A stretch of DNA of 19,960 nucleotides from a virus (Duplodnaviria; Heunggongvirae; Uroviricota; Caudoviricetes), in IMG/VR virus record IMGVR_UViG_3300029337_000252, positions 1 to 19,960 of that record; one strand, given 5' to 3'. The notes below the pieces were generated by a model, which searched no databases, was not told the origin of the DNA, and saw only the letters and a program-made list of their open reading frames with translations. Shown here one piece after another: positions 982-19,960 of this stretch. Position 1 is the stretch's first letter, and each line of letters starts with the position of its first letter. A program made the position numbers and the translations under genes.

Positions 982-988
982 GCGTTCA

Positions 989-2017: not shown

Positions 2018-2203
2018 ATGAGTAATAAAAACTACGAAAGTCACCGCAAAGCAATTGTTAGTAAAGGTATACCACCCGCTCTATTAAATAGGCTCACCAA
2101 TTCGGATGTTCAGGTGATCAATACCTTCTTAACACGAGTGAGCAAACTGGAACTATCTCAACAAGAGAAAGACTGGATCATAAAAATCATCTCTATGGTT
2201 TAG
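2018..2203 (+). CDS. Hypothetical small protein, 61 aa
   Basis: ORF with a GAGGAT Shine-Dalgarno-like sequence about 6 nt upstream of the ATG. No recognisable motif. Confidence 0.25.
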   Translation: MSNKNYESHRKAIVSKGIPPALLNRLTNSDVQVINTFLTRVSKLELSQQEKDWIIKIISMV

Positions 2204-2405
2204 ACAATTTCAGCCTTGTAGCCTTTCAAGGGTTTTGTGTGGGTACAAACATTATCGAATCGGGATATAGCCGCAGCTGTAGCTGTATCCACATCAGTAA
2301 GTTGATGTAGGTTGACTTAGGTTGAGCGAAAAATAGCGAAAAGCCTTGTGTGGCGCGGATTTCAGTCATAAAAAAAACGTCCGTTGACGTCTATTGATGT
2401 TCCGA

Positions 2406-2453
2406 TGGTGCGAAGGTGCGAAGGTGCGAAGGTGCGAAGGCCGGACTCAAACA
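2406..2453. other. attL-like core: inverted, degenerate copy of a tRNA-Leu (leuX-type) 3' end with a 4x tandem GTGCGAAG expansion
   Basis: Reverse complement reads GAGTCCGGC(CTTCGCAC)x4 CA, close to the leuX 3' end (..GAGTCCGGCCTTCGGCACCA) recalled from memory. No intact tRNA gene is present. Confidence 0.55.
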
Positions 2454-2642
2454 TCAAAATAAGTTAATGATAAAAAACAAATAATAAAACACAACAATGA
2501 AATATGCCCCCTTTTGTGCCCCCACTGTTTTTCTGACCAATCTATTTTCAGCCCATCAATAAATCGGAAAGTTAAATCATTTTTAATCAGTAAGTTTGGA
2601 TCCGTAGCTCGGATCCAAACCAGTGCATCTTTTATCCACATA

Positions 2643-2936
2643 AAAAATTTTTTTTCGAAAGAACTGTTCACACTGTTCACCTTTCTGTTTTCTCCTTTTA
2701 TTTCAGAGTGATAGGTGGTGAATAATGGGTGAAGGGTGAACATTCGATTCTTCACCTCCGGCATTCTGCCGGTGTGACTCATACCGGTGATTAATCCCCC
2801 GTACTGAAATCACTCAGGAAGAAAAAAGTTTTTTTTGATTTGATTGTTCACACTGTTCACCTTTCGTTTTTCTCTTTTAATTTCAGTATGATAACGGGTG
2901 AATATACGGTGAAGGGTGAACAGTGGATTGTTCACC
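2643..2936. repeat. crr-like cis replication region: two ~114-bp direct repeats (period 180 bp) carrying TGTTCACC/GGTGAACA octamers
   Basis: Units about 2643-2756 and 2823-2936 are near-identical (A6-T8 tract, TGTTCACACTGTTCACC, GGTGAAGGGTGAACA, TTCACC). Lies immediately 3' of alpha, as crr does in P4. Confidence 0.7.
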
Positions 2937-2953
2937 TGCGGGGGATATCGGGA

Positions 2954-2979
2954 TAAAAAAAGACCGGCAGATGCCGGTC
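2954..2979 (-). terminator. Rho-independent terminator downstream of alpha
   Basis: 7-bp GC-rich stem (GACCGGC / GCCGGTC), 4-nt loop, followed on the minus strand by a U7 tract; 17 nt past the alpha stop codon. Confidence 0.6.
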
Positions 2980-2995
2980 AGGTGGGTCATGAGGG

Positions 2996-5329: not shown

Positions 5330-5343
5330 GGTGTTGTTCTCCT

Positions 5344-5664
5344 TCAGTGCAGTACCGGCGCTTTTATGTGACGGGCACAGAGTTCATCCATCACAACCAG
5401 CCCGAGAAAGGACAGCGACGGCGCGGCCTTCAGGGGGCCGGATTCCATTAAATCTTCCAGCAGGGCACAGGCTATCTGACGCCCTTTTTCCTCACCGTGC
5501 TGGCGCAGATAAAAGCCTTCCAGCTCAGCGGCGATGGCCGCCTCCAGTGATTCAAGGGTGAGATGCGGGTAGCGGTGCTGACGTTCGCACACGGTCAGCC
5601 AGGCACAGGCGACAGCGCGACGGTAAAGGGCAGCGCGTAAGACGGGCGGTAAGGGTGTTTTCAT
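5344..5664 (-). CDS. Hypothetical protein, 106 aa (P4-like early operon)
   Basis: ORF in operon context between orf151 and alpha, 14 nt upstream of alpha. No motif recognised. Confidence 0.55.
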
Positions 5665-5799
5665 TTGCTTTCCTCCCTGTGACAGATGACTGCATTCCGT
5701 GCCGGTTGCATTAACTGATAAGGCATATCTGCGTCTCCTGAAGACGTGCGTATCCCTGCGCGAATACGCACATTTAATTTTTCGGGTGTCGTTTTTTAA

Positions 5800-6255
5800 T
5801 TACAGATAATTGCGGTAACTGTTATCCGGGGTGATTTCCGGGTCAGGCTCCGTGCGGGGAATTTCCCGCCATTCCCGCGCCACCGGTGCTGCCCGGCTGA
5901 CCGGAACAGGGTCCTGCGGGTAAATATCCAGATATTTCTCACGCCATTTCTGTAATTCCGGGTCTCCGGCCATTTCTTTCAGTACCGCATGCCGGTTTAC
6001 GGGGCTGCGTTTAAACAGGTCAGGACGGTCACAGGTAAATTCCCGCAGAAAACGCCCCAGCGGGATGTCTGTGGTGCGCCCGTCAGCGAGGATACGCACA
6101 AGGATACTGAATTTACGGCGGTACGGGTTCCAGACAATGTCCGGGCAGCGGTACGGCATTTCCCACGGAATACCGTCTTCCAGAATGCCGACCACGGCCA
6201 CATCGGGAAAACCGGCAGAACGGTAAATCTCACCGGGCTGGGGAAAATCAAACAT
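5800..6255 (-). CDS. P4 orf151-like protein, 151 aa
   Basis: Size and position (between epsilon and alpha) match P4 orf151; start overlaps the stop of the upstream gene. Confidence 0.65.
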   Translation of the reverse strand: MFDFPQPGEIYRSAGFPDVAVVGILEDGIPWEMPYRCPDIVWNPYRRKFSILVRILADGRTTDIPLGRFLREFTCDRPDLFKRSPVNRHAVLKEMAGDPELQKWREKYLDIYPQDPVPVSRAAPVAREWREIPRTEPDPEITPDNSYRNYL

Positions 6256-6535
6256 GCGTCCTGTCTCCCCGGTCTTTCTGCTGGGCGAGAAAATCGCGGC
6301 ACAGGCCTTTGGCTTTCAGCTCATTCAGCACAAAATCAATATCTTCATTCAGGTAGCTGAAAATATGCGGAATGTAGAGCTGATGCAGGCCGGAGAGTTC
6401 ACGGTGAATCAAATCACCCCCAACAAACCGGGATACGGCGCTGGCGCGGTTGAGCTTATGGTAAGCCTCAATGCTGAGGTGTTCACGGGCGTCATGACGC
6501 GCTGAGACGGTCTGAGGGGCTTTTTTATTACGCAC
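6248..6535 (-). CDS. Epsilon-like protein, 95 aa, proposed GTG start
   Basis: The ORF track gives 190 aa (to 6820), but the first 95 residues are low-complexity. A GTG with a GGAGG Shine-Dalgarno 5 nt upstream gives a 95-aa product, the size I recall for P4 epsilon. Confidence 0.5.
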
Positions 6536-6725
6536 GGGACACCTCCACCACCGGCAGACGGGCAGCAAGGGAGAGCACATAGTCACGGACAAGGGAACGG
6601 CGGGCACTGCGTTCATCACCGGCGACGGTGCGAAGCATACAGATACGGGGATGACGGTCTGTGCGACGGACAGCCGCAAACACAAAGACAAATTCAGGGT
6701 GTGAGGGGGTAAGGGTTGTAGCCAT
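6528..6725 (-). CDS. Hypothetical small protein, 65 aa
   Basis: ATG preceded by AGGAGG (8-nt spacer); overlaps the proposed epsilon start. Replaces the 214-aa track ORF 6528-7172. Confidence 0.5.
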
Positions 6726-6728
6726 GAT

Positions 6729-6847
6729 GGCAGCCTCCTGTGAATAGCAAATAACGCTATCGCCGGAGTTTCCACGCTCGATGGCGATAGCCCAGACGGG
6801 GGTGGAAATACCGGCTTCACAGGATACCGGCCAGCCCGGAGGCTGCC
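6729..6847 (-). promoter_or_regulatory. Structured leader upstream of orf66: hairpin plus U-tract and an anti-SD segment (candidate immunity/attenuation region, cI-like)
   Basis: 9-bp stem hairpin (6766-6774 / 6793-6801) followed on the minus strand by a U-rich run; 10-nt GGCAGCCUCC (6838-6847) exactly complementary to the orf66 SD region GGAGGCUGCC (6729-6738). Confidence 0.35.
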
Positions 6848-7123
6848 CCGCCTGAGCTACCATTGACTCTGCGGCATAATGAGCGGACGCGGGCAGGATG
6901 CACGGAATGCCATCTGCACGACTGACCACACACCACACCATAATCTGGCGCTCTGTGGCGTTGATTGCGACACAAAAAAAGACGCATGGCGCGTCATATG
7001 TCGCCTGTGAATTGCTCGGGTTTCCACGCCCGGCTGCCGATTTTGCGGCAGCGGAAAAACTATATCCGCAAATGCCGGAAAAAGGCAAGCCAGAAAAAGG
7101 GACTTTTTGCAGAGCGGGCATCA

Positions 7124-7390
7124 TCATGCGTCGTACCCCCGTTTGCGTCCGGCAATGCGCCCGGCCATCCATGCGGTGACTTCAGAGTGCAGCCAGGCCA
7201 CATTTTTACCGCCAAGACTCACCTGCGGCGGAAATTCCCCCTTACGGATGAGTTCATAGATGGTCGAGCGTGACAGGCCGCACAGGTGCATCACTTCCGG
7301 AAGACGTAAAAAACGCTCCTGTGTGATGTCCGGCAGCGGCATCAGTGGCGTCACAGGGGCGGGAGACGGGGAAGAAAAAACAGCTTGCAT
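7124..7390 (-). CDS. vis: Vis/AlpA-family DNA-binding regulator/excisionase, 88 aa
   Basis: AlpA-like helix-turn-helix core ([27 protein letters not shown]); size matches P4 orf88 (vis) as I recall it. Confidence 0.7.
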
Positions 7391-7493
7391 CGGGCTACCT
7401 CGTTAATGTCCATACAGCACCGGATAAGTCCGTCCGGCTTCGGGTAGCGCTTTATTTTGTGAATATTTTCAGCAGACGCAACAGGGGGGATTT

Positions 7494-7511
7494 GTTCCGG
7501 CAGCCTTACAA
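7494..7511. promoter_or_regulatory. TGT-N12-ACA dyad: candidate Delta/Ogr activator site of a leftward late promoter (P_LL-like)
   Basis: TGTTCCGGCAGCCTTACA, about 105-120 bp upstream of the vis start on the minus strand; same dyad form as P2/P4 late promoters. Confidence 0.4.
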
Positions 7512-7669
7512 TGCTTGTGTATTTTTTGTTCATCTCCACTTAAAGTCATTTAAAGCCACTTAAAGCAATTCGTAATTTTTATAGTGAAATACAAATCGTT
7601 TTTTCTTATTCATTCCCGGCGAATTAATAAAAACAAACAGTAATAAACAGCACAAAAAGCCCATCAACG

Positions 7670-7773
7670 GGTGAACAGTGGTGAACAGACGGTGAACAGT
7701 CATTACTGCGATTGTTCACCCTTTAACTTACTGTATTACTTATCTTTTTTCTTATGGTGAACAGAGGTGAACA
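7670..7773. repeat. ori-like iteron cluster: six TGTTCACC octamers (alpha-binding type I repeats)
   Basis: GGTGAACA at 7670, 7680, 7691, 7756 and 7766; TGTTCACC at 7713. Sits between the divergent vis and sid operons, about 4.7 kb from the crr-like repeats. Confidence 0.7.
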
Positions 7774-7853
7774 GTAAAATATAAAAAAAATAAACAGTAA
7801 GCCGTTTTTTCCAGCGACCTTTTCCTGGCTTGCCGGTCTGAGGATGAGTCTCC

Positions 7854-7871
7854 TGTGTCAGGGCTGGCACA
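7854..7871. promoter_or_regulatory. TGT-N12-ACA dyad: candidate Delta/Ogr activator site of the rightward late promoter (P_sid-like)
   Basis: TGTGTCAGGGCTGGCACA centred about 80 bp upstream of the sid ATG. Confidence 0.5.
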
Positions 7872-7943
7872 TCTGCAATGCGTCGTGTTGCTGTCCGGTG
7901 TACGTCACAATTTTCTTAACCTGAAGTGACGAGGAGCCGGAAA

Positions 7944-8678
7944 ATGTCTGACCACACTATCCCTGAATATCTGCAACCCGCACTGGCACAACTGGAAAAG
8001 GCCAGAGCCGCCCATCTTGAGAACGCCCGCCTGATGGATGAGACCGTCACGGCCATTGAACGGGCAGAGCAGGAAAAAAATGCGCTGGCGCAGGCCGACG
8101 GAAACGACGCTGACGACTGGCGCACGGCCTTTCGTGCAGCCGGTGGTGTCCTGAGCGACGAGCTGAAACAGCGCCACATTGAGCGCGTGGCACGCCGGGA
8201 GCTGGTACAGGAATATGACAATCTGGCCGTGGTGCTGAATTTTGAACGCGAACGCCTGAAAGGGGCGTGTGACAGCACGGCCACCGCCTACCGGAAGGCA
8301 CATCATCACCTTCTGAGTCTGTATGCAGAGCATGAGCTGGAACACGCCCTGAATGAAACCTGTGAGGCGCTTGTCCGGGCAATGCATCTGAGCATTCTGG
8401 TACAGGAAAATCCGCTCGCCAACACCACCGGCCATCAGGGCTACGTCGCACCGGAAAAGGCTGTCATGCAGCAGGTGAAATCATCGCTGGAACAGAAAAT
8501 TAAACAGATGCAAATCAGCCTCACCGGCGAGCCGGTTCTCCGGCTGACCGGACTGTCAGCGGCAACACTTCCTCACATGGATTATGAGGTGGCAGGCACA
8601 CCGGCACAGCGCAAGGTGTGGCAGGACAAAATAGACCAGCAGGGAGCAGTGCTTAAGGCCAGAGGACTGCTGTCATGA
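7944..8678 (+). CDS. sid: Sid, capsid size determination (external scaffold) protein, 244 aa
   Basis: Start moved to the ATG at 7944 (GAGGAG SD upstream) rather than the track's 7926; length then matches P4 Sid. First gene of a sid-delta-psu operon. Confidence 0.9.
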   Translation: MSDHTIPEYLQPALAQLEKARAAHLENARLMDETVTAIERAEQEKNALAQADGNDADDWRTAFRAAGGVLSDELKQRHIERVARRELVQEYDNLAVVLNFERERLKGACDSTATAYRKAHHHLLSLYAEHELEHALNETCEALVRAMHLSILVQENPLANTTGHQGYVAPEKAVMQQVKSSLEQKIKQMQISLTGEPVLRLTGLSAATLPHMDYEVAGTPAQRKVWQDKIDQQGAVLKARGLLS

Positions 8679-9175
8679 TTTACTGCCCGTCGTGTGGACA
8701 TGTTGCTCACACCCGCCGCGCACATTTCATGGACGATGGCACCAAGATAATGATTGCACAGTGCCGGAATATTTATTGCTCTGCGACATTTGAAGCGAGT
8801 GAAAGCTTTTTCTCTGACAGTAAAGATTCAGGAATGGAATACATTTCAGGCAAACAGAGATACCGCGATTCACTGACGTCAGCCTCCGGCAGTATGAAAC
8901 GCCCGAAAAGAATGCTTGTTACCGGATATTGTTGTCGGAGATGTAAAGGCCTTGCGCTGTCAAGAACATCGCGGCGTCTGTCTCAGGAAGTCACCGAGCG
9001 TTTTTATGTGTGCACGGATCCGGGCTGTGGTCTGGTGTTTAAAACGCTTCAGACCATCAACCGTTTCATTGTCCGCCCGGTCACGCCGGACGAACTGGCA
9101 GAAAGCCTGCATGAAAAACAGGAACTGCCGCCAGTACGCTTAAAAACACAATCATATTCGCTGCGTCTGGAATGA
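8675..9175 (+). CDS. delta: Delta, late-gene transcriptional activator (tandem Ogr-like zinc fingers), 166 aa
   Basis: Two Ogr-type zinc-finger halves (CPSCGH..C..C and CRRCKG..C..C); ATGA overlap with the sid stop. Confidence 0.9.
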   Translation: MIYCPSCGHVAHTRRAHFMDDGTKIMIAQCRNIYCSATFEASESFFSDSKDSGMEYISGKQRYRDSLTSASGSMKRPKRMLVTGYCCRRCKGLALSRTSRRLSQEVTERFYVCTDPGCGLVFKTLQTINRFIVRPVTPDELAESLHEKQELPPVRLKTQSYSLRLE

Positions 9176-9248
9176 GGGCTGCCGGTTAACACCGGCCGTC
9201 GCCGCACACCGTATTTTTATTCTTCAGCATGATGAGAAAGAGATAACG

Positions 9249-9821
9249 ATGGAAAGCACAGCCTTACAGCAGGCCTTTGACACCTGTCAGAATAACAAAG
9301 CAGCATGGCTGCAACGCAAAAATGAGCTGGCAGCGGCCGAACAGGAATATCTGCGGCTTCTGTCAGGAGAAGGCAGAAACGTCAGTCGCCTGGACGAATT
9401 ACGCAATATTATCGAAGTCAGAAAATGGCAGGTGAATCAGGCCGCCGGTCGTTATATTCGTTCGCATGAAGCCGTTCAGCACATCAGCATCCGCGACCGG
9501 CTGAATGATTTTATGCAGCAGCACGGCACAGCACTGGCGGCGGCACTGGCACCGGAGCTGATGGGCTACAGTGAGCTGACGGCCATTGCCCGAAACTGTG
9601 CCATACAGCGTGCCACAGATGCCCTGCGTGAAGCCCTTCTGTCCTGGCTTGCGAAGGGTGAAAAAATTAATTATTCCGCACAGGATAGCGACATTTTAAC
9701 GACCATCGGATTCAGGCCTGACGTGGCTTCGGTGGATGACAGCCGTGAAAAATTCACCCCTGCGCAGAACATGATTTTTTCGCGTAAAAGTGCGCAACTG
9801 GCATCACGTCAGTCAGTGTAA
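9249..9821 (+). CDS. psu: Psu, polarity suppression (anti-Rho, capsid decoration) protein, 190 aa
   Basis: Length and position (last gene of the sid operon, just before cos) match P4 Psu. Confidence 0.9.
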   Translation: MESTALQQAFDTCQNNKAAWLQRKNELAAAEQEYLRLLSGEGRNVSRLDELRNIIEVRKWQVNQAAGRYIRSHEAVQHISIRDRLNDFMQQHGTALAAALAPELMGYSELTAIARNCAIQRATDALREALLSWLAKGEKINYSAQDSDILTTIGFRPDVASVDDSREKFTPAQNMIFSRKSAQLASRQSV

Positions 9822-9856
9822 AATTCCCCGAAAATCCGCCCGTTTTTACTGAAAAA

Positions 9857-9895
9857 AGCCATGCATCGATAAGGTGCATGGCTTTGCATGCGTTT
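9857..9895 (+). terminator. Terminator-like hairpin after psu
   Basis: 9-bp stem (AGCCATGCA / TGCATGGCT) with a T-rich tail; A-run upstream, so possibly bidirectional. Confidence 0.45.
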
Positions 9896-9985
9896 TCCTG
9901 CCTCATTTTCTGCAAACCGCGCCATTCCCGGCGCGGTCTGAGCGTGTCAGTGCAACTGCATTAAAACCGCCCCGCAAAGCGGGCG

Positions 9986-10004
9986 GGCGAGGCGGGGAAA
10001 GCAC
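9986..10004. other. cos site (19-nt P2/P4-type cohesive end)
   Basis: GGCGAGGCGGGGAAAGCAC matches the P2/P4 cohesive end as I recall it; flanked by a GC-rich dyad (CCGCCCCGC AAA GCGGGCGG). Confidence 0.8.
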
Positions 10005-10238
10005 TGCGCGCGCAATCGAAAATTATGTGTTTGATAATTAAAACATTCTATATGCAGAAACATCACTGCCTATGGATAGCTTCTACTGCCGAACACACAC
10101 TAATCATCAAAATATCGCACTAAAGCACCCCAATATTATTAAAAGAAAAATACCAAGCAGAATTATCCCTTTCCATATTGAACGTTCGTTGATCTTATAG
10201 TGATAAGTTGCTAATCTCCATTAAAAAAGGAGATAACA

Positions 10239-11165
10239 ATGCACGCTTTAGCACCGTATCTTTTCCGCTGCTACAATCCGAACGCAGCCAAAGAACAACG
10301 TTATTCAGCACTGAGTAACATCAGAGAACATGATTTACTTGATATACTCGATGAATTTATTAAGCAGTATAATGAAGAATATATCCTTTCTGAAGAAACC
10401 AAACAAGTTTTTCGTTTTAATGAGATTACACGCGATAACAACAATCGAGAAATATATGGATGGTTCGAGTCTGGATATTACGGAACAAAGACCGACATAA
10501 TAAACATTGAAACTGGCGATGTAGACTTCGAAAAGACAAAAAACAATGCTGAAATAATTAGATATTACATACATTTTTATATTCCTAGAGATGTAAATGA
10601 AGGCATGGCGTTTTTACATACCTATAGAGGTGATGGTATAAAAACTCTTTTTATGAGATTGTTTTCAGATTATTTCAAGAGGGTTACCAACTTAGTGATT
10701 CAAATGAACCCTCTGGCGTATGATAAAGCGATTGAAAAATGGATGAATGCCATTACCAAAGAAATCAAGGTAACTAAATTCCATGGCATTACAGATGTAG
10801 CTGAACAAGCCAAAAAGCTAGGCCATAACGAGCAAGAATTAATTATCAAACCGCCTCGAAATGCAGGACTTGGAAGACTTCGAGACTATTTCTCCAGAGG
10901 CTCGGAGCAATATCAACTCGTTGAAGTCCTTAAAGAATATGGAGAAACAGTAAAAACAGTTGTTGAATTAGATAATGGCAGAAAAAGAACTTTTCATATT
11001 GGAACAACAGCAAGGGGAGCTGTATGTGAAATTTTATTTGATGAAGAACAAGTTGTTTTTTATGATGGCATGCCGGAAATAGCATCACTAAATAATTTTG
11101 TTGATGTTATTATCATGGAATATATACAGTTGTTATATCGTGGTGTTACTATAAGGAGAGCGTAA
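10239..11165 (+). CDS. Hypothetical soluble protein, 308 aa (cargo gene A, candidate sensor of a defence module)
   Basis: AAGGAGA SD 7 nt upstream; about 30% GC by eye; no Walker A, HNH, TOPRIM, TIR or other motif I can recognise. Confidence 0.8.
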   Translation: MHALAPYLFRCYNPNAAKEQRYSALSNIREHDLLDILDEFIKQYNEEYILSEETKQVFRFNEITRDNNNREIYGWFESGYYGTKTDIINIETGDVDFEKTKNNAEIIRYYIHFYIPRDVNEGMAFLHTYRGDGIKTLFMRLFSDYFKRVTNLVIQMNPLAYDKAIEKWMNAITKEIKVTKFHGITDVAEQAKKLGHNEQELIIKPPRNAGLGRLRDYFSRGSEQYQLVEVLKEYGETVKTVVELDNGRKRTFHIGTTARGAVCEILFDEEQVVFYDGMPEIASLNNFVDVIIMEYIQLLYRGVTIRRA

Positions 11166-11749
11166 TGAGTTCAAAGATAAATATATGCGAAGTTCTTATA
11201 GGCCACTTCAGAACTTTAAAAAATGCTGACACTAATAAGATCAGTTTATGGGATATATTTACATTCATAATACTACCATTTATTATTGCTGCCGCATTCT
11301 CACTCCTTGGAAGTGGTATAACAAAAGATTTAATATCATTATTAGTTAATTTCAGTGCAATACTAACAGCATTACTGCTTAGCGTTCTTGTTTTAGTATA
11401 TGATCAAGAATCAAAAATAAGACAAAGAAAAGATATTGATACATTCTATGAATCAAAGAAAGCATTACTCACTGAACTTTATTATAACATTTGTTATTCA
11501 ATTTTATGTGGAGTTTTGTTAGTCGTGTTGTGTTTTATAGTATCACTGTTTCCTGTCAATCAATCAGGATTCTTTTACGGCAAAACACATGAATATTATG
11601 TCAGCATAATAAACACAACTCTAAAATTAAATGTGTTATACTATTTTTTATGCCCACTCATAATATATGTTTGCGTACATTTAATTTTGAATATCATTAT
11701 GATTGTTAAAAGAATGCACGCACTCTTAACTCTTGATGTGAATGATTAG
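11165..11749 (+). CDS. Hypothetical 4-helix membrane protein, 194 aa (cargo gene B, candidate membrane effector)
   Basis: TAATG stop/start overlap with gene A. Four hydrophobic segments (about aa 27-51, 55-79, 104-129, 155-181); about 30% GC. Confidence 0.8.
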   Translation: MSSKINICEVLIGHFRTLKNADTNKISLWDIFTFIILPFIIAAAFSLLGSGITKDLISLLVNFSAILTALLLSVLVLVYDQESKIRQRKDIDTFYESKKALLTELYYNICYSILCGVLLVVLCFIVSLFPVNQSGFFYGKTHEYYVSIINTTLKLNVLYYFLCPLIIYVCVHLILNIIMIVKRMHALLTLDVND

Positions 11750-11759
11750 CTTTTAAATT

Positions 11760-11797
11760 AACCTAGCCAGCGAGACTACAAAAATTCTGGCTAGGTT
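11760..11797. terminator. Bidirectional terminator hairpin between cargo operon and int
   Basis: Perfect 11-bp stem (AACCTAGCCAG / CTGGCTAGGTT), 16-nt loop, A/T-rich flanks, between convergent stop codons. Confidence 0.55.
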
Positions 11798-11803
11798 AAA
11801 ATA

Positions 11804-12191
11804 CTATTTAAGTTGTCTAGCAAAATCATATGGTGTAATACTTTCTTTCTTATTTCTATCTAAATAATCTGCCCACCACTGTATCATTAAACGCCTTTCG
11901 TCTAAATGCTCAGATGTATGAATATAAGCAGCACGTACATTATTACGTTCTGAGTGACTTAGCTGACGTTCAATCGCATCATCACTCCATAAGCCTGATT
12001 CCCCTAATGCTCCACGCGCCATCGTTCTAAACCCGTGCCCGCAAACTTCGGTTTTCGTGTCATAGCCCATCGCACGCAATGCGCTATTTACTGTATTTTC
12101 ACTCATAACCTTAGTTGCGTCATGATCCCCCGGAAAAAGCAGTTCTTTATCACCACTAATCTGCTTTAACTGGTTTAGCTGCGTATTTTCA
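11804..12191 (-). pseudogene. int: P4-type tyrosine integrase, 3' fragment (C-terminal about 125 aa), N-terminal part removed at the IS junction
   Basis: Carries the C-terminal catalytic box (HGFRTMARGALGE ... RQLSHSERNNVRAAYIH). The reading frame runs into the IS left end at about 12192, and the first codons of the track ORF are IS-derived. Confidence 0.85.
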
Positions 12192-12372
12192 TGAAAGGAG
12201 ATCACTCAATAACTTCCATCGAGATCGGGTAATAACATTTGAACAGATCGCTGAATAACATCGATGGAGATCACTTTTGACTCATTTTGTTATTCAGTGA
12301 TCTCCATCAATGTTATTGGAACTTCACAGGTGTGTTGATCTGTATCTTTTGCCATTCCGGTAAAGGATACCT

Positions 12373-13914
12373 ATGCCAACAGTTCCAATTTCTATGAGAA
12401 AACTTAAAGAAATTCTTAGGCTTAAATACGGTGTTGGACTCAGCCATCGACAAATTGGTCGTAGTCTTGCAATCTCCCCTTCCGTTGTATCCAGATATGC
12501 TAATCGGGCGGCTCAACTTGGCATAAAGCAGTGGCCCTTACCTACAGGATGGGATGATACAAAACTAAAACATGCGTTCCTTCAGACCCAGGTTAAGATG
12601 AAGAAGCACTCTCTGCCTGACTGGGCTACAGTACACCGGGAACTGCGTAATAAATGCGTGACGCTGCAGCTACTCTGGGAAGAATACTGTGAGCGTAATC
12701 CAGGCGGTTTTTACAGCTATAACCATTACTGCCGGATGTACCGTGAATGGCTCAAAACCACTTCACCATCAATGCGTCAGGTACATAAAGCTGGCGAAAA
12801 ACTTTTCGTTGATTACTGTGGACCTACCGTTGGCGTTACCGACCCTGAGACCGGAGAAATAAGAACTGCTCAGGTCATCGTAGCTGTTCTCGGGGCATCA
12901 AGTTACACATGGGCAGAGGCCACCTGGTCTCAGCAGCTTGAAGACTGGGTGATGAGTCATGTTCGCTGCTTCCAGTGGTTGGGTGGCGTTCCTGAACTTG
13001 TTGTTCCGGACAATCTGAAAAGCGCCACATCCAGGGCATGTAAGTATGATCCTGACGTTAACCCTACCTACCAGCAGATGCTTGAGCATTATAATGTCGC
13101 AGTTTTGCCTGCGCGGCCACGTAAACCGAAAGATAAAGCCAAAGCTGAAGTTGGCGTTCAGGTTGTTGAACGCTGGATCATGGCCCGAATCAGGCATGAG
13201 ATCTTCTACAGCCTTGCATCGCTTAATCAGCGCATTCGGGAGTTGCTGGAAAGACTGAATAACAAAATAATGCAGAAGTTGGGTTATTCACGTGCAGAAC
13301 TCTTCATCCAGCTTGATAAACCCGCACTGAAGCCTCTTCCTGAAGCCAGTTACAGTTACACCCTGGTGAAGAAAGTCAGAGTTCATGCCGATTACCACGT
13401 GGAAATCGACAAACATTACTACTCGGTTCCATGTTCGCTGTTAGGCCAGCAACTGGAAGCATGGATCTCCGGAGAACTGGTAAGACTCTTCAATCAGGGG
13501 CAGGAGGTTGCTGTGCACCCGCGCAAGCGTACTTATGGCTACAGTACCCGCAACGAGCACATGCCTGAAGCTCATCGACAGCATGCCACCTGGACGCCAG
13601 AGCGTCTTCTGGAATGGGCGGGGCACATAGGCAGTGAAACTCATAGTTATGTGCTTCATATACTGAACTCTCGTCCACATCCGGAACAAAGCTATCGCTT
13701 CTGCCTTGGACTCCTGAACCTTCATAAAAAATACAGTAAAGCCAGACTTAATGCAGCATGTGCAAGAGCTCTGAAAACAAAGGTATGGCGTCTGTCAGGT
13801 ATTAAATCGATCCTGGAAAAAGGTCTGGATAAACAACCTGTTCAGGATCCAAAACCAGATCTGTTATCCACGATGGAACACGAAAACGTACGCGGCAGTG
13901 AGTATTACCACTGA
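12373..13914 (+). CDS. istA: IS21-family transposase IstA, 513 aa
   Basis: N-terminal helix-turn-helix, large size, followed 12 nt later by an IstB-type ATPase gene. Confidence 0.9.
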   Translation: MPTVPISMRKLKEILRLKYGVGLSHRQIGRSLAISPSVVSRYANRAAQLGIKQWPLPTGWDDTKLKHAFLQTQVKMKKHSLPDWATVHRELRNKCVTLQLLWEEYCERNPGGFYSYNHYCRMYREWLKTTSPSMRQVHKAGEKLFVDYCGPTVGVTDPETGEIRTAQVIVAVLGASSYTWAEATWSQQLEDWVMSHVRCFQWLGGVPELVVPDNLKSATSRACKYDPDVNPTYQQMLEHYNVAVLPARPRKPKDKAKAEVGVQVVERWIMARIRHEIFYSLASLNQRIRELLERLNNKIMQKLGYSRAELFIQLDKPALKPLPEASYSYTLVKKVRVHADYHVEIDKHYYSVPCSLLGQQLEAWISGELVRLFNQGQEVAVHPRKRTYGYSTRNEHMPEAHRQHATWTPERLLEWAGHIGSETHSYVLHILNSRPHPEQSYRFCLGLLNLHKKYSKARLNAACARALKTKVWRLSGIKSILEKGLDKQPVQDPKPDLLSTMEHENVRGSEYYH

Positions 13915-13925
13915 TACGGGATCCA

Positions 13926-14675
13926 ATGATGAATCATCTTTACGAACAACTGACCGCACTTAAACTCACCGGCTTCCGTGATGCGCTTAAAAAGCAACTT
14001 GCTCAGCCGGGCACATACCAGGAGCTGGGCTTCGAAGAACGCCTGTCATTACTGACAGCAGAAGAACTAACCTGCCGTGAAAACAGGAAGGCAGAGCGTC
14101 TGATCAAACATGCACGGTTCAGACTTAATGCTGAGTTATCAAAGCTGGATTATCGTAACAATAGAGGGCTGGACAGGGCCTTCATCCGTTCACTCAGTCA
14201 GGGAAACTGGTTAACCCTGAAACAAAATATTTTACTGACCGGGGCCACCGGCAGCGGTAAAACGTTCCTGGCATGTGCACTTGGTCATAATGCCTGCCGA
14301 CAGGGATACAAGGTCTACTATTATCGCCTTAAAGCGCTGATGGAACAGTGCTATCAGGGGCATGCTGATGGAAGATACAGCAAACTTTTGACCAGGCTGA
14401 ATAATAGCGATCTGCTGCTTCTGGATGACTGGGGGCTGGAACCTCTCTCATCAGAACAGCGTAGCGACCTGCTGGAAATAGTGGATCTGATGTACCAACG
14501 AGGCTCAATCATCGTAGTGAGCCAGTTGCCGGTGGAAAACTGGTACAAAATGATCGGAGACTCCACACATGCGGATGCCATCCTAGATCGACTGGTTCAT
14601 GGCAGTATCAAGATCGAACTTAAAGGAGAATCAATGCGGAAAATACAATCTCCGTTGACCGAAGGAGATCAGTGA
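13926..14675 (+). CDS. istB: IS21-family helper ATPase IstB, 249 aa
   Basis: Walker A (GATGSGKTFLACALG) and Walker B (LLLLDDWG) of the DnaC/IstB AAA+ family. Confidence 0.9.
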   Translation: MMNHLYEQLTALKLTGFRDALKKQLAQPGTYQELGFEERLSLLTAEELTCRENRKAERLIKHARFRLNAELSKLDYRNNRGLDRAFIRSLSQGNWLTLKQNILLTGATGSGKTFLACALGHNACRQGYKVYYYRLKALMEQCYQGHADGRYSKLLTRLNNSDLLLLDDWGLEPLSSEQRSDLLEIVDLMYQRGSIIVVSQLPVENWYKMIGDSTHADAILDRLVHGSIKIELKGESMRKIQSPLTEGDQ

Positions 14676-14745
14676 AGGTAATTTAAAAACGGTTCTGTGA
14701 AAGTGACACGAACCGATCTCCATCGATGTTACTCACCGATCTCCT

Positions 14746-15183
14746 TCACGGTAATACGCAAAAAGTTAGCTGGATTCTTAGGCCATTAGAAATTCCAACA
14801 TCTTTAGAGGCTTTAAAACTCGTAATAATGGAATCGTCAATTTTAATTCCGTCTCGACAGATGACCGAAATAATTTGCTTCTGGTCACGCCAGCTTTCCA
14901 GAGTGTCGATGAAGTTTTCCACCAGCTTATTATCTCTTGAGATGAGGATACTACCGGATTCACCAACCACAACCACACCACTGATTGAAATAGTTCTGGG
15001 TGAACGCATTACATTATCTGTGACAGCCTGCCCTGATTGCATATTTTGAGTGGTAACCATCATAGGGCTATCAAATTCCATGTTCTCAGTAGCTGATAGT
15101 GACAAGAAATTATCTGGTTGGCCTTGTAGATGGAAGTAAACACCATCTTTGCCACTGTAACGAAGCTGATTAGTGTAAATCAT
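14746..15183 (-). CDS. Phage tail component downstream of the tape measure gene, truncated at its 3' end by the IS (145 aa as read)
   Basis: Start set at the ATG with an AAGGAGA SD (track ORF begins 7 codons earlier at TTG). Its stop codon is supplied by the last 3 nt of the IS right end. Confidence 0.5.
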
Positions 15184-15341
15184 TAAATTCTCCTTTGATT
15201 TCAAAGGCTTAGTGTATTTTAAGTATTTTTAACTAATCCTTTGATATATAAGTGTTTTCTCTGTTAAGCGTGAGCTACGTGAAAAATAATTTTTTAGTGT
15301 GGGTATTAACTTTGCTTTATTCACGTAGCATTCGACTATTA

Positions 15342-17381
15342 TCAATCATCTTCTGGGAATGATGAACTTAATAGCGTAGCTTCTGCGTATTGGTCGTAGA
15401 TATTACCGCTAAAGGTCATAAAGCTGGTTTCATCTGGTTTAATGGCAACTTCACCACCAAGTGAAACTTTCACAGGCTCCTGAATACGTTTACTCAAAGC
15501 GGAGATTTCATCTCTCAGGCTTTGGATATCTGCACTCGTTAATGCTGAATCTTGCTTAATGTTGTTTAATTCTGGATGCTGGAAGTTAGCAAGATTCATG
15601 GCAGCACTATTAAACCACCCTTTAACATCATCCATAGTGAAAGCGGGTTTAAGTCCAGACTCTTTAGCTAGCTCTGGTAATTTAGCTTGTGCTTCCATTC
15701 GTTCAGGCGTAGAAGCTAATCTCTCATAACCTGCATAGATTGCACTACCAGTTAATAGCATATTCCCAAGATTAAACCTTGATGGTTTCCCGTTCTTTTT
15801 ATTTACGTTATCTGCTGTAGTATCAGCGACCTGACCTAATCTTGTGATAGCAGTCATAAGCCCGTAAATACTTCTAGTTACACCAACAACTTTATTTACA
15901 GCAATAACACCAGCCAAGACTTTTAAACTATTAATCAAGCCAGAACCTAAAGCATCAACAACTTTCTTTTGTTCATCGGTTAAACCACGATAAGCTAATG
16001 TCACCTCATCAAAGAACGCTCTCACCCTGTAACTAATATAAGTCAGGTTATCGATACCATGTGACATATCACTCATCAAGCTACCAAGACTTTCACCTAA
16101 TGTTTTACCACTTCCATCTAAACTATTTAAAAGCGTTGTTAAGCTTCGTGTAAAATCTTGCAGACCATTTTCAGAACCTTTGAAAATATCCGTTAATGAG
16201 TTATTCCAGGTATTCTTTAAGTTCCCTAACATTGTCTGCGTAGAGTCCTGAATAGCTTTCCAGCCACCTCTTGAATTAATCTGTGCACCAAGTTCTTTAG
16301 CAAACTTAGGGAGTGCATCAGAGGCTTTAACATCACCATTTTTCATCTTATCGAAAAGCTGTTTTTCAGTCAGACCTAAAGCCTTTGCAAATGCCTGAGT
16401 AGCACCCGGTAAAGCTTCAGATAATTGCCCCTTCAACTCCTCAGACATCACCTGCCCCTTAGAAGCCATCTGCGATACTGCGGTTAATGCTCTTTGAATC
16501 TGCTCATCTGAACGCCCCATTAGACGGGCATATCCAGTTAAGTTTTTAAATAATTCCTCTGAGCCTTCAAGACCCATCGTATTCTTTGCAGATGCACCGA
16601 ATGAGGCAAACTGAGCTTGTGTTTCGGTCGTGTCCATACCCGTGACTTGAGTTAAATCCTGAATGAACTTTTTAACCTGTGTACTTTGGTCACCGAATAC
16701 GAAATCAATACTTCTTTCCGATGATGCACGCTGTAAACCAACTTCCATAATCTTCTGATAACTGGCTAATACAGCTTGCATTGAGATAAATGCACCTGCT
16801 GTTTTAACTGCTGCTGAAGACAGGTTATCAAGACTATTAGCTGCTCTGTCACCATTAATGCTGGTGGATGTATGACCTCTGGCTTTAGCAATTGCTTCTC
16901 GTACACTTGAATTTAGTTTAGCAAGGGCTTCATTAAACTTGGTGTTATCCATCTGACCAGCTTTACTACTTAATGCGTAAAACTGGCTCTTAATGTATTT
17001 CTCGACAATTGGGTTAAGACCTTTCAGTTTGGTCATACTCGCTGAATAAGCTGCTGTGATTGCTCTGCTTCCGCTAATTCGTGGTTGCCTTGATTGTCTA
17101 AGTGGCTTTAAAGTATCCTCAATTTCCGTTTTAATCTTAAACGCTTTAGTGTTTTTAAGACGCTGCTCAATCTTGGAAACAGTTTTATCGACATTTCTTT
17201 CCATGACCTTGAGAGAATCATTTAAAGGCGTAGGATTAACTCTGAATGCTTTATTTAGTCGTTTTTCAATTCTTGATGCGATTTGCATCGTTTGTTTCTC
17301 GGCTTTTTCCAAGCCTTTTAAAACTTTCTGAGAGTTAAAACTTAACTCAATCAGGAAGTCATCAACTTTAAACTGTGCCAT
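15342..17381 (-). CDS. Phage tail tape measure protein, 679 aa
   Basis: Long, helix-rich, low in aromatics; central segment (GQVMSEELKGQLSEALPGATQAFAKALGLTEKQLFDKMKNG) resembles the conserved tape-measure core region. Confidence 0.8.
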   Translation of the reverse strand: MAQFKVDDFLIELSFNSQKVLKGLEKAEKQTMQIASRIEKRLNKAFRVNPTPLNDSLKVMERNVDKTVSKIEQRLKNTKAFKIKTEIEDTLKPLRQSRQPRISGSRAITAAYSASMTKLKGLNPIVEKYIKSQFYALSSKAGQMDNTKFNEALAKLNSSVREAIAKARGHTSTSINGDRAANSLDNLSSAAVKTAGAFISMQAVLASYQKIMEVGLQRASSERSIDFVFGDQSTQVKKFIQDLTQVTGMDTTETQAQFASFGASAKNTMGLEGSEELFKNLTGYARLMGRSDEQIQRALTAVSQMASKGQVMSEELKGQLSEALPGATQAFAKALGLTEKQLFDKMKNGDVKASDALPKFAKELGAQINSRGGWKAIQDSTQTMLGNLKNTWNNSLTDIFKGSENGLQDFTRSLTTLLNSLDGSGKTLGESLGSLMSDMSHGIDNLTYISYRVRAFFDEVTLAYRGLTDEQKKVVDALGSGLINSLKVLAGVIAVNKVVGVTRSIYGLMTAITRLGQVADTTADNVNKKNGKPSRFNLGNMLLTGSAIYAGYERLASTPERMEAQAKLPELAKESGLKPAFTMDDVKGWFNSAAMNLANFQHPELNNIKQDSALTSADIQSLRDEISALSKRIQEPVKVSLGGEVAIKPDETSFMTFSGNIYDQYAEATLLSSSFPEDD

Positions 17382-17465
17382 TATTCATATTCACCTCATA
17401 CAAAAAAGGGGAGGACCAACCAATTAAGGTTAATCTCTCCCCGTATTTACCCAACCAATTCTTTT

Positions 17466-17678
17466 TTAATGTCGGACAAGATAATGTAGTTCCGTTTCAC
17501 CTATAATTTGAGCATCAGAAGGAATACGGTCAATACACCACTTTGGAATCTTGCGTGTTTTTGGTTTGTGTGAGGTGATGTAATGACGGTTATTCTTAAT
17601 TCGTAGCTTTTGTCTATTTGGTTGTAGCTGGAGTCTTTCGCAAACAGACCGAATAGTCTCTAAACGTTCTTCAAACAT
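17466..17678 (-). CDS. Hypothetical small basic protein, 70 aa
   Basis: GAGGTGA SD upstream; same strand and operon as the tail genes. Confidence 0.5.
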   Translation of the reverse strand: MFEERLETIRSVCERLQLQPNRQKLRIKNNRHYITSHKPKTRKIPKWCIDRIPSDAQIIGETELHYLVRH

Positions 17679-17701
17679 TAATCACCTCACATATTGCATA
17701 A

Positions 17702-18418
17702 TCAAACAGCCTTGCTAAATTCTCGTGGAACACTCAGAAAATCATTGAAGCTGATAATCTGTGCCAACTCTTGACGGTACTCCTTAGCCAGCGCTTGATG
17801 GTCACTAATCAGCTTAGCCAGTCTTGATTTCAGCAAATTAATCTCATTTTCTCTTGCTTTCATCAGTTTCTCTTTGGCAATTTCTTCAAGCTCAGCTTGT
17901 GATTTATCAGCAACAATTAGAGACAGTCGATGTGGCGCTCTAATGGCTCTTTCTGTACGAACAACTCTTTGACCTTCTGGTAAATCTGCAATCACTTTAC
18001 CAATCTCTACAGGGTCATACCCCCAACCGTCACGGCCTAGTCGAGAGAAATAAGCATAAGGATTGGTTTGAAGCTCCATCAAAATAGCCATTTCGTCAAT
18101 TTCGTCTTCAAGCTTGGACTGAATTTTCTCGTAAACACTTCTCATTGCTTCTTGAGAGTCTTTAATAGCTTGGAAATATCGGCGTTGTAGCTTCAACTTC
18201 AAATCAAGTTCACACCGTTCGTTCATAGAAAAATCAATTTCAACTCTTGGAATCTCGAGTGGTTCTGGTGGAATATATGGACCTTTATTTACTTCGTGTG
18301 ATTCCCGCCAAGCTCTATCAAAAGATTCACGCAAACTTAATTCGTGAATATCAAGTGCACTTGGTCTGTTCTCAACAATCATTTCGTGTTCATTACGAAT
18401 AGACATTATTTTTTTCAC
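17702..18418 (-). CDS. Hypothetical protein with C-terminal coiled-coil, 238 aa
   Basis: GAGGTGA SD 6 nt upstream; heptad-like, charged C-terminal segment (ELEEIAKEKLMKARENEINLLKSRLAKL...). No motif recognised. Confidence 0.7.
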   Translation of the reverse strand: MKKIMSIRNEHEMIVENRPSALDIHELSLRESFDRAWRESHEVNKGPYIPPEPLEIPRVEIDFSMNERCELDLKLKLQRRYFQAIKDSQEAMRSVYEKIQSKLEDEIDEMAILMELQTNPYAYFSRLGRDGWGYDPVEIGKVIADLPEGQRVVRTERAIRAPHRLSLIVADKSQAELEEIAKEKLMKARENEINLLKSRLAKLISDHQALAKEYRQELAQIISFNDFLSVPREFSKAV

Positions 18419-18978
18419 CTCATTGGTTTTTGTTTGTTTTTCAATTTATAGAAGCACACTCAGCAATCAGAGGTGAAGAGTCTGACTGAACAAGAACCTG
18501 CCAAGTGTGCTTTTAAAAACTGAAAAGCCCTAAACATAGGTGATTCGGATATTCATGGAATCATCCTTATCTGTGAAGGGCTTTGGAGGTTTGCTTATAA
18601 CGTTAACGAAGTTTCAGGAAAACTTTCTTTAAAAGCTCTGTTTAAAAACTCTTAAAGAAACGCCCTAATCATGAGTCAGGGCAAAGCTGTAAAGGATTCA
18701 ATGAATGAACAAAGATTTTTGATATGGCCTATTTAGTGTGGGCTAAATAAGCCATGACGAAAAGCATTGCACCTTTCAGAATAACTATCCCTAGATGTAG
18801 ATGGAATTGTTGAAAGAAATAAGAGAGAATTGCTCTCCCATAATTAAAATTATGCCATGCTTAAGGTTATTTGTCAACAGCTTTTTAACAGATTGGTAAC
18901 ATCAATTTTTATTTACTGTGTTACCTACCCAGCAACCAACAAATAAGCCAAGCAGCGTCCAAGCAATTATTAAACCCA

Positions 18979-19302
18979 TTAGTGAGCCCTCACAGAATCC
19001 GTCACCAAAATACTGTCGCCATACAAAATTGCTATAGCCGCCTTGAGATATTTTTCAGGGCTAACGCTGTATTTGTTCGTTTCTTCGATAACAAGCCTTT
19101 TCATGTTTGAGTCGGTAACGGGAAACATAAAACGTGGTTCACCAGTTTCAATTCCCTGAATAAAACCTTCAATTGCTTCTGAGTTTTCAGCCATTAGCTT
19201 TAGTAATTTATCAAAGTCAATTGATACACCGGAATCAGTGAAAGCCTGCACCATCGTAGCAGTGTCGCTATCAATGAAAATCTGTAATTCATATTCGTTC
19301 AT
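18979..19302 (-). CDS. Hypothetical acidic protein, 107 aa
   Basis: AGGAGA SD upstream; AT-rich phage-like context. Confidence 0.6.
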   Translation of the reverse strand: MNEYELQIFIDSDTATMVQAFTDSGVSIDFDKLLKLMAENSEAIEGFIQGIETGEPRFMFPVTDSNMKRLVIEETNKYSVSPEKYLKAAIAILYGDSILVTDSVRAH

Positions 19303-19460
19303 TTTTAAAATCTCCTTTTTTACCAGACCTCCTCAATCGCTCTGTAACGAGCTAAATAGTCTTTTTCAGGGGTAGCCTGTACAGTGGTATTACCCACCCT
19401 AAAATAGGGTAGTTTTTTTTGCGTTAGAATGCGATTGAGAGCGTCTGAGAAGCTGTTTTT

Positions 19461-19748
19461 CTAATTTCTCTTAAAGTCTCGGACTTGCATAAGATTTTTT
19501 GGTCTGGTATCGGCTCTGTTACCATTTCGATGGATGATTTGCTTATTGGATTGATAGCCATGATAAAGGAACCAGACAACATATTTCACGCAGAAAGTGT
19601 ATCGGCCTATATTAAATGTTTTGTTGCCGTAGTCGTCGGTATTTATCGTGACCGACTCTCCATCAGACCAGCACAGGGAATCACTGGATTCATCATAGGT
19701 AAGTTGTTCTGTAAAATATCGCCTAACATCTTCATGCCAAGGTTTCAT
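19461..19748 (-). CDS. Small HNH_3-type (phage homing-endonuclease-like) protein, 95 aa
   Basis: C-terminal block YHGYQSNKQIIHRNGNRADTRPKNL fits the H-x-NG-x(3)-D-x(4)-NL pattern of standalone phage HNH proteins; GAGGAGG SD upstream. Confidence 0.65.
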   Translation of the reverse strand: MKPWHEDVRRYFTEQLTYDESSDSLCWSDGESVTINTDDYGNKTFNIGRYTFCVKYVVWFLYHGYQSNKQIIHRNGNRADTRPKNLMQVRDFKRN

Positions 19749-19960
19749 AAAACCTCCTCACCCCAATAACCTAATTCAATCTTGTGACGCTCAAACCATT
19801 CCGGTTTAACTGCTGCTTTCAGTGTTTCATTTGGGCCAATGACTTTAATGAAAATATCTCTTGAGTTAAAGATGTCACCGAATCCGTTTCCTTTAATCAG
19901 GAGGTCGGAGATGTAGCGAATCATTTTATCTGTGTGGTATTCAAAGGTAACGCATAGCAT
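19745..19960 (-). CDS. Hypothetical protein, 71 aa
   Basis: ORF whose ATG coincides with the last three bases of the window; 4-nt overlap with the downstream HNH_3 gene. Confidence 0.55.
   Translation of the reverse strand: MLCVTFEYHTDKMIRYISDLLIKGNGFGDIFNSRDIFIKVIGPNETLKAAVKPEWFERHKIELGYWGEEVL

Follow-up and report, generated by a model that had tools for sequence, protein, structure and literature searches.

The ISEc12 junction between a P4-like satellite and a tail-gene island is probably a mis-resolved repeat rather than a deletion scar

The window analyzed here (IMG/VR virus record IMGVR_UViG_3300029337_000252, positions 1 to 19,960; 19,960 nucleotides) has a P4-like satellite on one side of an insertion sequence and a phage tail-type gene on the other, and neither gene touching the element is complete. 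The question raised by this locus is how two such flanks came to share one IS copy. A preliminary description took the element to be the scar of a deletion, or of recombination between two IS copies, that had removed the 5′ part of the satellite integrase, the tRNA/attR, and part of a neighboring prophage. Comparison with relatives shows that each flank derives from a real ISEc12 insertion of its own and that both insertions occur together in one E. coli lineage. A mis-resolved ISEc12 repeat in the assembly is the best explanation of the junction, and we consider it probable.

The element at 12180-14760 (plus strand, 2,581 bp) is ISEc12, a member of the IS21 family, as the preliminary description had recognized at family level. 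Its identity to copies that bear the ISEc12 annotation (in RefSeq, 2,312 genomes and 978 plasmids) is 99.6-100%. istA (12373-13914) encodes an IS21-type DDE transposase (NF033546, 310.5 bits, cutoff 160; Pfam rve and Mu-transpos_C_2 also matched), and istB, directly 3′ of it (13929-14675), encodes the helper ATPase (NF038214, 268.9 bits, cutoff 200; PF01695, E = 4e-67). The ends of the element were set by the flanks of other copies, which diverge exactly at TGCGTATT...AATACGCA. The ends first proposed (about 12192 and 14748) had each been placed 12 bp too far in. The terminal inverted-repeat regions occupy 12180-12247 and 14694-14760, pairing as 12180-12195 with 14745-14760 and 12195-12247 with 14694-14746, and contain repeated GGAGATC motifs. 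One nucleotide distinguishes copies of the element: T at IS position 2002 (window position 14181, plus strand; IstB Phe85) marks the copy at the integrase locus, while the Dit-locus copies of both closed genomes discussed below have C.

P4-like satellites at leuX carry a defense hotspot organized as psu-cos-int (PMC9122126). The satellite in the window extends from 2435 to 12179, from the distal att core to the IS cut in the integrase, and is syntenic with satellite-intact relatives located at leuX (L003 and L004). Like the leuX satellites described previously, it has alpha, sid-like, delta, and psu genes, an exact cos core, and variable AT-rich cargo between cos and int (PMC9122126). The distal att core (2435-2448, CGAAGGCCGGACTC) matches the 3′ end of leuX; the window does not contain the leuX-proximal att copy. 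Alpha primase is encoded at 2996-5329 on the minus strand and psu at 9249-9821; to the right of psu come the cos site and then two cargo genes. Pfam families matched on identical neighboring genes include Psu, Ogr_Delta, primase, and AlpA. The cos core (9986-10004, plus strand, GGCGAGGCGGGGAAAGCAC) is an exact match to a 19-nt query that we take to be of P2/P4 type; none of 200 shuffles gave any match. The unannotated two-gene cargo in the P4 defense hotspot is a promising lead in its own right.

The P4-type tyrosine integrase, which adjoins leuX in relatives, is present in the window only as a C-terminal fragment of 124 aa (11804-12179, minus strand; residues 296-419 of 419 aa plus the stop), abutting the left end of the IS as first described. 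Pfam gave no match on the 133-aa integrase fragment, and its identity came from alignment to the intact integrase of L004; the fragment is 100% identical to WP_000772674.1. ISEc12 interrupts the gene at codon 295/296, and the window lacks the 5′ 884 bp of the gene. The same split by ISEc12 occurs in three relatives (L007, L035, and L042). Because the integrase is split by the IS, the satellite is without a working integrase of its own, and it would probably be trapped in place unless helped by another integrase in trans.

On the right, the element abuts a Dit-like “phage baseplate” gene, confirming the view of a tail-type gene that takes its stop codon from the IS. The 5′ fragment of this gene (14746-15183, minus strand) was identified by PF21821 (E = 3e-17) and by alignment to the intact protein encoded in L005 (256 aa). 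Of the 256 codons, 1-141 lie at 14761-15183; the reading frame then enters the IS for four codons and ends at a TGA supplied by it (14746-14748). The fusion ORF is on record as a 145-aa version starting at ATG, and look-up of a 152-aa version starting at TTG showed it not to be on record. The rest of the flank (15342-19960, minus strand; Pfam and PHROG matches) contains several unknown genes together with those for a tape measure protein (15342-17381, minus strand) and an HNH endonuclease (19461-19748, minus strand). This flank is 100% identical over 5,200 bp to five other sequences (L024, L023, L028, L030, and L032). What had been called a neighboring prophage is actually part of an island of 12 kb, flanked by tonB and yciI and not adjacent to the satellite. 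The combination of a tape measure gene, a Dit-like gene, and a serine recombinase in so small an island is also a promising lead.

Target duplications show which insertion events the two ends belong to. The mismatch between the flanks of the window is meaningful because six independent ISEc12 insertions have perfect 5-bp duplications (TAAAT, CCCGC, CCTTC, TTAGC, AAAAG, and CCAGG). The target duplication reported in the literature, ACTGC, also has 5 bp (PMC10711316). The true flanks of the element in the window are TTAGC (12175-12179) and AAAAG (14761-14765). The absence of a target duplication thus stands, but the hexamers originally compared (TTTTCA and CGGTAA) lie within the terminal inverted repeats. 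TTAGC is one copy of the duplication made by insertion into the integrase gene, and it is present on both sides of the IS in L007, L035, and L042; AAAAG is one copy of the duplication made by insertion into the Dit-like gene, present on both sides in L024 and L025. Relatives lacking the IS, with which comparison had been proposed, provide the empty sites: ...GGTTTAGC followed by AAAATC for the integrase (L003 and L004), and ...TTCCTG followed by AAAAGTTAGC for Dit (L005 and L006). A matching 5-bp repeat with the target gene continuing beyond the IS, the pattern of a simple insertion, is found at these two sites in L007, L035, L042, L024, and L025; in the window the flanks are different genes. 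The earlier view that this is not a simple insertion is therefore upheld, since the two junctions belong to different ISEc12 insertion events. A second TTAGC lies within the right flank, 5 bp in from the IS end (14766-14770). A misplaced IS end with a simple insertion, considered from this recurrence, was rejected: intact Dit reads CCTG followed by AAAAGTTAGC, and Dit homology begins at 14761.

CP058796.1 and CM129609.1, closed genomes that match both flanks of the window at 99.98-100% identity, each have both insertions intact with perfect duplications. At the integrase locus of CP058796.1 (L035), the order is int3′-IS-int5′-leuX-ahr-yjgR-lptGF, with the IS at 4,154,394-4,156,974 and TTAGC on both sides. 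At its Dit locus (L024), the order is tonB-recombinase-Dit3′-IS-Dit5′-TMP, with the IS at 2,717,479-2,720,059 and AAAAG on both sides. The arrangement is the same in CM129609.1 (L042 for int and L025 for Dit). Window positions 1165-12179 are 100.000% identical to L035, 3929-14760 to L042, and 14761-19960 to L024. In both genomes the integrase 5′ half and leuX lie directly beyond the IS, contrary to the proposal that they had been removed, and the Dit 3′ half and serine recombinase lie directly beyond the second ISEc12 copy. A matching repeat with the integrase 5′ half directly beyond the IS had been named as the finding that would speak against a deletion; it is found in these sister genomes, not in the window. 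The two ISEc12 copies, both on the plus strand in CP058796.1, are direct repeats 1.43-1.48 Mb apart and 99.96% identical. CP058796.1 has a third copy at 1,855,766-1,858,345, also in direct orientation, so the lineage has at least three.

This geometry bears directly on an IS-mediated deletion that started beside the integrase insertion and took the integrase 5′ half, leuX/attR, and the DNA up to a tail gene of a neighboring prophage. The flanks of the window are non-contiguous and share no target duplication, and the leuX-proximal att copy is missing while the distal one is in place (2435-2448), all as such a deletion would leave them. However, the deletion would have taken 3,312,241 bp of the 4,751,737 bp of CP058796.1, from leuX onward, in relatives that are 99.98-100% identical, and CM129609.1 has the same geometry. 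The segment begins with leuX, ahr, yjgR, lptG, lptF, pepA, holC, and valS; in K-12, lptFG and valS are essential and oriC lies in the corresponding arc. A contiguous dispensable segment between the two flanks was not found in the undeleted relatives. The right junction is base for base that of the pre-existing simple Dit insertion (AAAAG, L024/L025) and not a new endpoint, and the Dit5′-junction contigs that reach the end of the island (L014, L029, and L030) adjoin yciI there, not leuX. These contigs also led us to reject movement of the island beside leuX followed by a small deletion. A deletion scar is thus very improbable. New intramolecular transposition of the integrase-locus copy into Dit, for example through an IS21-type tandem junction, is less probable still as the source of the right junction. 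IS21-family elements do fuse and rearrange replicons via reactive tandem junctions and leave non-matching flanks, which counts for such an event. Against it, transposition would have had to hit the exact nucleotide and orientation of the Dit::ISEc12 insertion already present in the same lineage, and its products would share the viability problem of the deletion.

Homologous recombination in the cell between direct ISEc12 copies deserves more weight, although we still regard it as unlikely. The earlier suggestion of recombination between two IS copies identified the right class of explanation, in that the junctions come from two ISEc12 insertions, and a hybrid IS lacking a target duplication is also what genuine homologous recombination between IS copies classically leaves behind. 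As in hybrids formed by deletion, inversion, or duplication, the flanks here are unrelated and the target-site halves do not match, each flank matching one parental insertion. Direct repeats of 99.96% identity are a good substrate, the lineage holds at least three copies, and enterobacteria are well known to duplicate DNA between direct IS copies. In that case, the junction would have formed by tandem duplication of about 1.43 Mb (Dit5′...thr...fim...int3′), as its novel joint, or by a multi-step rearrangement through further IS copies, with all genes kept elsewhere. Several observations oppose this. A 1.4-Mb duplication is unstable and would seldom appear in an assembly consensus; the parental pairing is present in both closed genomes; and T2002 would confine the crossover to the last 579 bp (the last 22%) of the IS. 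The three located copies in CP058796.1 share one orientation, which closes inversion routes among them. A viable two-step inversion through a third, inverted ISEc12 was rejected on the same ground, since the third copy is direct instead. If recombination did occur, a gut E. coli clone in which ISEc12-ISEc12 exchange has welded an integrase-less P4 satellite to a tail-gene island would be represented here.

Searches in other assemblies help to separate recombination from a mis-joined repeat. The pairing seen in the window, which amounts to circularization of the 1.43-Mb arc, was found in none of 5,426 closed RefSeq E. coli genomes, neither of its two junctions occurred in a closed RefSeq genome, and IMG/VR, JGI metagenomes, and GTDB representatives yielded no further case; the JGI metagenome search returned a single contig, which ends inside the IS. 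Look-ups with the tape measure protein, a 194-aa cargo protein, and the IstB variant gave parental pairings and the reciprocal hybrid only. That reciprocal hybrid, Dit 3′ half-IS-int 5′ half, is exact and comes from an independent metagenome assembly (ERZ28509015 NODE_100, L045). It reads ...CCTGAAAAG, then ISEc12, then TTAGCAAAATC. As a real structure it would mean loss of the 1.43-Mb arc; duplication of the arc could not produce it, and a deletion of that kind would kill the cell. Both parental insertions are widespread in gut metagenomes, and the four ORFs specific to the parental junctions are each recorded, in similar numbers of contigs (20, 20, 13, and 7). Most short-read contigs end within this ISEc12. 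The parental pairings thus occur in closed genomes, and the hybrid and its reciprocal are confined to draft assemblies. No sign of misassembly was seen inside the window itself.

A mis-resolved repeat would account for the window as follows. ISEc12 split the P4-type integrase of the leuX satellite with duplication of TTAGC (copy A), and separately, in the 12-kb tonB-yciI island, the Dit-like gene with duplication of AAAAG (copy B). The window follows the satellite, the integrase 3′ half, and an IS identical to copy A, and then exits into the right flank of locus B. Where a repeat can be entered and left by two routes each, this is the wrong pairing, most likely made by an assembler crossing a 2.6-kb repeat without spanning reads, and there would have been no deletion of DNA. 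T2002, the mark of copy A, stands just 579 bp from the Dit flank of copy B, which fits a path switch at the exit of the repeat. It is probable that the source genome retains the sequences missing here (integrase 5′ half, leuX/attR, Dit 3′ half, and serine recombinase) next to its IS copies. The window differs from known IS-IS recombination hybrids in that the parental copies lie 1.43 Mb apart as direct repeats, the pairing is of a non-viable or duplication type, and the reciprocal occurs in another draft; together these suggest exchange in silico, which is most likely how the join arose. The window is most likely a repeat-induced chimeric contig, and it resembles others in that the repeat exceeds the short-read insert, contigs break inside it, and the wrong pairings occur only in non-closed assemblies. 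Should the contig derive from long reads that cross the element, its junction would physically exist.

Simple insertions of ISEc12 are known, as in tssM::ISEc12 of E. coli ST131 clade C (PMC10711316). The element described here is like them in identity (99.6-100%), length (2,581 bp), istA/istB, repeats starting TGCGTATT, and gene disruption, and both parental insertions share the typical 5-bp duplication, whereas the ends in the window carry the TTAGC and AAAAG halves. The locus calls for caution, as a hybrid IS without a target duplication on a single contig mimics a deletion scar, whereas closed genomes of the same lineage have two ordinary, distant insertions and make the implied deletion impossible. 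The biology that survives is routine: ISEc12 has inactivated two genes, the integrase gene of a P4-like satellite at leuX and a tail-type gene in a small island.

The window is E. coli DNA. It opens with nanS (1-981), and a P4-like satellite extends from a leuX-like att core (2435-2448) to position 12179. The satellite has an alpha primase gene (2996-5329, minus strand), psu (9249-9821), sid-like and delta genes, an exact P2/P4 cos core (9986-10004), two AT-rich cargo genes (10239-11749, plus strand), and the 3' end of a P4-type integrase gene (11804-12179, minus strand). The distal copy of its att core (CGAAGGCCGGACTC) is preceded directly by tandem GGTGCGAA repeats (2405-2448). Between nanS and the satellite (989-2400) are a 216-aa HNH/ScoMcrA-like gene, which matches type IV restriction enzymes weakly in PADLOC, and gene fragments whose annotation in relatives is phosphorothioated-DNA-binding restriction endonuclease. 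Both look like the remains of an earlier defence island that occupied the same leuX site.

The psu-int interval is a defence hotspot of P4-like satellites (PMC9122126), and the cargo genes lie inside it, directly past cos. They overlap, encode 308 and 194 aa, and have a GC content of 0.33 vs 0.56 in the P4 core. Neither protein has a match in Pfam, NCBIfam, or PADLOC, and both match only PHROGs without assigned function (15676 and 15250); the public collection has the 194-aa protein in 102 of its blocks. The pair is a candidate uncharacterised anti-phage cassette.

The insertion sequence beside the integrase fragment is 99.6-100% identical to copies annotated as ISEc12, and its IstA (12373-13914) and IstB (13929-14675) clear the NCBIfam cut-offs for IS21 transposase and helper ATPase. 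Such copies are present in 2,312 of the 5,426 closed E. coli genomes, as well as on 978 plasmids. Flank comparison among independent copies gives TGCGTATT as its start and AATACGCA as its end; in the window it occupies 12180-14760 (2,581 bp), with terminal inverted repeats consistent with those ends. The ends given in the preliminary description were each 12 bp too far inward, judging from where the flanks of independent copies diverge, and the hexamers it compared belong to the inverted repeats. Its observation that a target-site duplication is missing nevertheless stands at the true ends, with TTAGC on the left and AAAAG on the right. This absence is real and meaningful because perfect 5-bp duplications were seen at six independent ISEc12 insertions (TAAAT, CCCGC, CCTTC, TTAGC, AAAAG, and CCAGG), and the published tssM::ISEc12 (PMC10711316) likewise has a duplication of 5 bp.

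Alignment to the intact 419-aa and 256-aa proteins bears out the earlier account of both cut genes. The integrase fragment comprises residues 296-419 of 419, with 100% identity to the intact copy that adjoins leuX in two comparison loci (L003 and L004). To the right of the IS, the minus strand carries a fragment of a Dit-like "baseplate" gene, as well as a tape measure gene of 679 aa and a number of small genes. Of its 256 codons, the Dit-like gene retains 1-141; the edge of the IS lies precisely between two codons, and the ORF ends with four IS-encoded codons and an IS-supplied TGA.

Exact look-ups of junction-specific ORFs provided the deciding evidence on the origin of each junction. The 133-aa integrase-IS fusion ORF is present in many gut-metagenome contigs. 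In one of them (L007) the insertion is simple: TTAGC flanks the IS on either side, and past the IS come the 5' half of the integrase gene, ahr, and yjgR. Eighteen contigs carry the 145-aa Dit-IS fusion ORF, and every one of them ends inside the IS; the three examined contigs that extend to the island's far end (L014, L029, and L030) put the island beside yciI. A tape measure look-up led to two closed chromosomes, CP058796.1 and CM129609.1, where the Dit locus reads tonB, serine recombinase, Dit 3' half, IS, Dit 5' half, and tape measure gene, with AAAAG on both sides. Their integrase locus, found by cargo-protein and IstB look-ups, has TTAGC on both sides of the IS; beyond it are the integrase 5' half and leuX, then ahr, yjgR, lptG, lptF, and pepA. 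Both loci are simple insertions in both chromosomes. CP058796.1 has 100.000% identity to window 1165-12179 and 14761-19960, and CM129609.1 to 3929-14760; therefore, the window belongs to the lineage of both. The integrase insertion is older than the Dit insertion, because in isolate GCA_016677655.1 the Dit gene is intact although the integrase junction is present, on a contig that ends at the IS boundary (loci L038 and L023).

In CP058796.1 (4,751,737 bp), the Dit copy (2,717,479-2,720,059) and the integrase copy (4,154,394-4,156,974) are 1,434,334 bp apart; in CM129609.1 (2,785,569-2,788,149 and 4,267,916-4,270,496), the separation is 1.48 Mb. The tail-gene island is not the "neighbouring prophage" of the satellite that had been supposed. 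Both copies are on the plus strand in both chromosomes and are therefore direct repeats. The window joins the integrase copy's left flank to the Dit copy's right flank, which for direct repeats in that order is the joint of a circularised 1.43-Mb arc or of its tandem duplication. Reading it as an IS-mediated deletion of the integrase 5' part, the tRNA/attR, and prophage DNA would require loss of 3,312,241 bp, beginning with leuX-ahr-yjgR-lptG-lptF-pepA-holC-valS. From K-12, we take lptFG and valS to be essential and oriC to lie within that arc. Deletion is therefore excluded for the CP058796.1/CM129609.1 lineage, and it is extremely improbable as the source of the window.

The window junction is probably an assembly mis-join, in which a two-in, two-out ISEc12 repeat would have been mis-resolved and a switch of path on leaving the repeat would have produced the wrong pairing. 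The parental pairings are present in both closed genomes, neither of the window's junctions occurs in 5,426 closed RefSeq genomes, and no second sequence with its pairing turned up in the collections searched. Nearly all short-read contigs end inside ISEc12, and records of the four parental junction ORFs come from similar numbers of contigs (20, 20, 13, and 7). An independent metagenome contig (L045; ERZ28509015 NODE_100, 21x coverage), SPAdes-style judging from its NODE naming, carries the exact reciprocal hybrid, tonB-recombinase-Dit3'-AAAAG-ISEc12-TTAGC-int5'; as an actual chromosome, it would be without the 1.43-Mb arc. Both wrong pairings are confined to non-closed assemblies, the expected outcome of mis-resolving such a repeat. 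A real exchange between ISEc12 copies in the cell is unlikely; a megabase duplication joint would be viable. Inversion routes look closed because another ISEc12 copy, the third located in CP058796.1, likewise has direct orientation. The window IS is identical to the integrase-locus copy, and at IS position 2002 (window 14181, IstB Phe85) it has T where both closed-genome Dit-locus copies have C. A real crossover would thus have to land in the last 579 bp, a coincidence that a path switch at the exit does not need. Fresh transposition would have had to strike the Dit gene at precisely the nucleotide where the existing insertion lies.

The island to the right (window 14761-19960; whole in comparison loci L005, L006, and L023) is about 12 kb and normally sits between tonB and yciI. 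It encodes a large serine recombinase, the Dit-like protein, the 679-aa tape measure protein, an HNH endonuclease, a small resolvase, and several proteins without known function; no capsid or terminase is annotated in it. Relatives are located at wrbA (E47) and yecE (EC45), matches exist in 482 of the 5,426 closed E. coli genomes, and it may be a satellite or a prophage remnant. Islands of this type are a recurrent IS target (loci L001, L002, L024, and L028/L032; hits H11, H66, H85, and H89), with ISEc12 at no fewer than four distinct positions (two in the Dit gene, one in the recombinase, and one near the small resolvase) and with IS2, IS100, and IS3-family elements annotated inside or beside them in other strains. 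The third ISEc12 copy of CP058796.1, near sbcB/dacD (1,855,766-1,858,345; locus L040 8253-10832; also L047), lies between gCACATGA and aCACATGA, a 7/8 bp repeat that is unusual compared with a clean 5-bp duplication. Indels in this copy and in the integrase-locus copy of CP058796.1 are absent from CM129609.1 and from the metagenome copies, and so look like consensus errors.

Overall, the window involves an already known IS and two ordinary insertions, and its hybrid joint is no deletion scar but most likely the product of assembly. In closed genomes, and in many metagenomes too, ISEc12 splits the satellite integrase at codon 295/296. The integrase's N-terminal 295-residue piece is without the region bearing the catalytic H-x-x-R and Tyr residues of the family, which are seen in the retained C-terminal fragment. 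With its integrase split in this way, the satellite is probably unable to excise with its own integrase, as the preliminary description had predicted.
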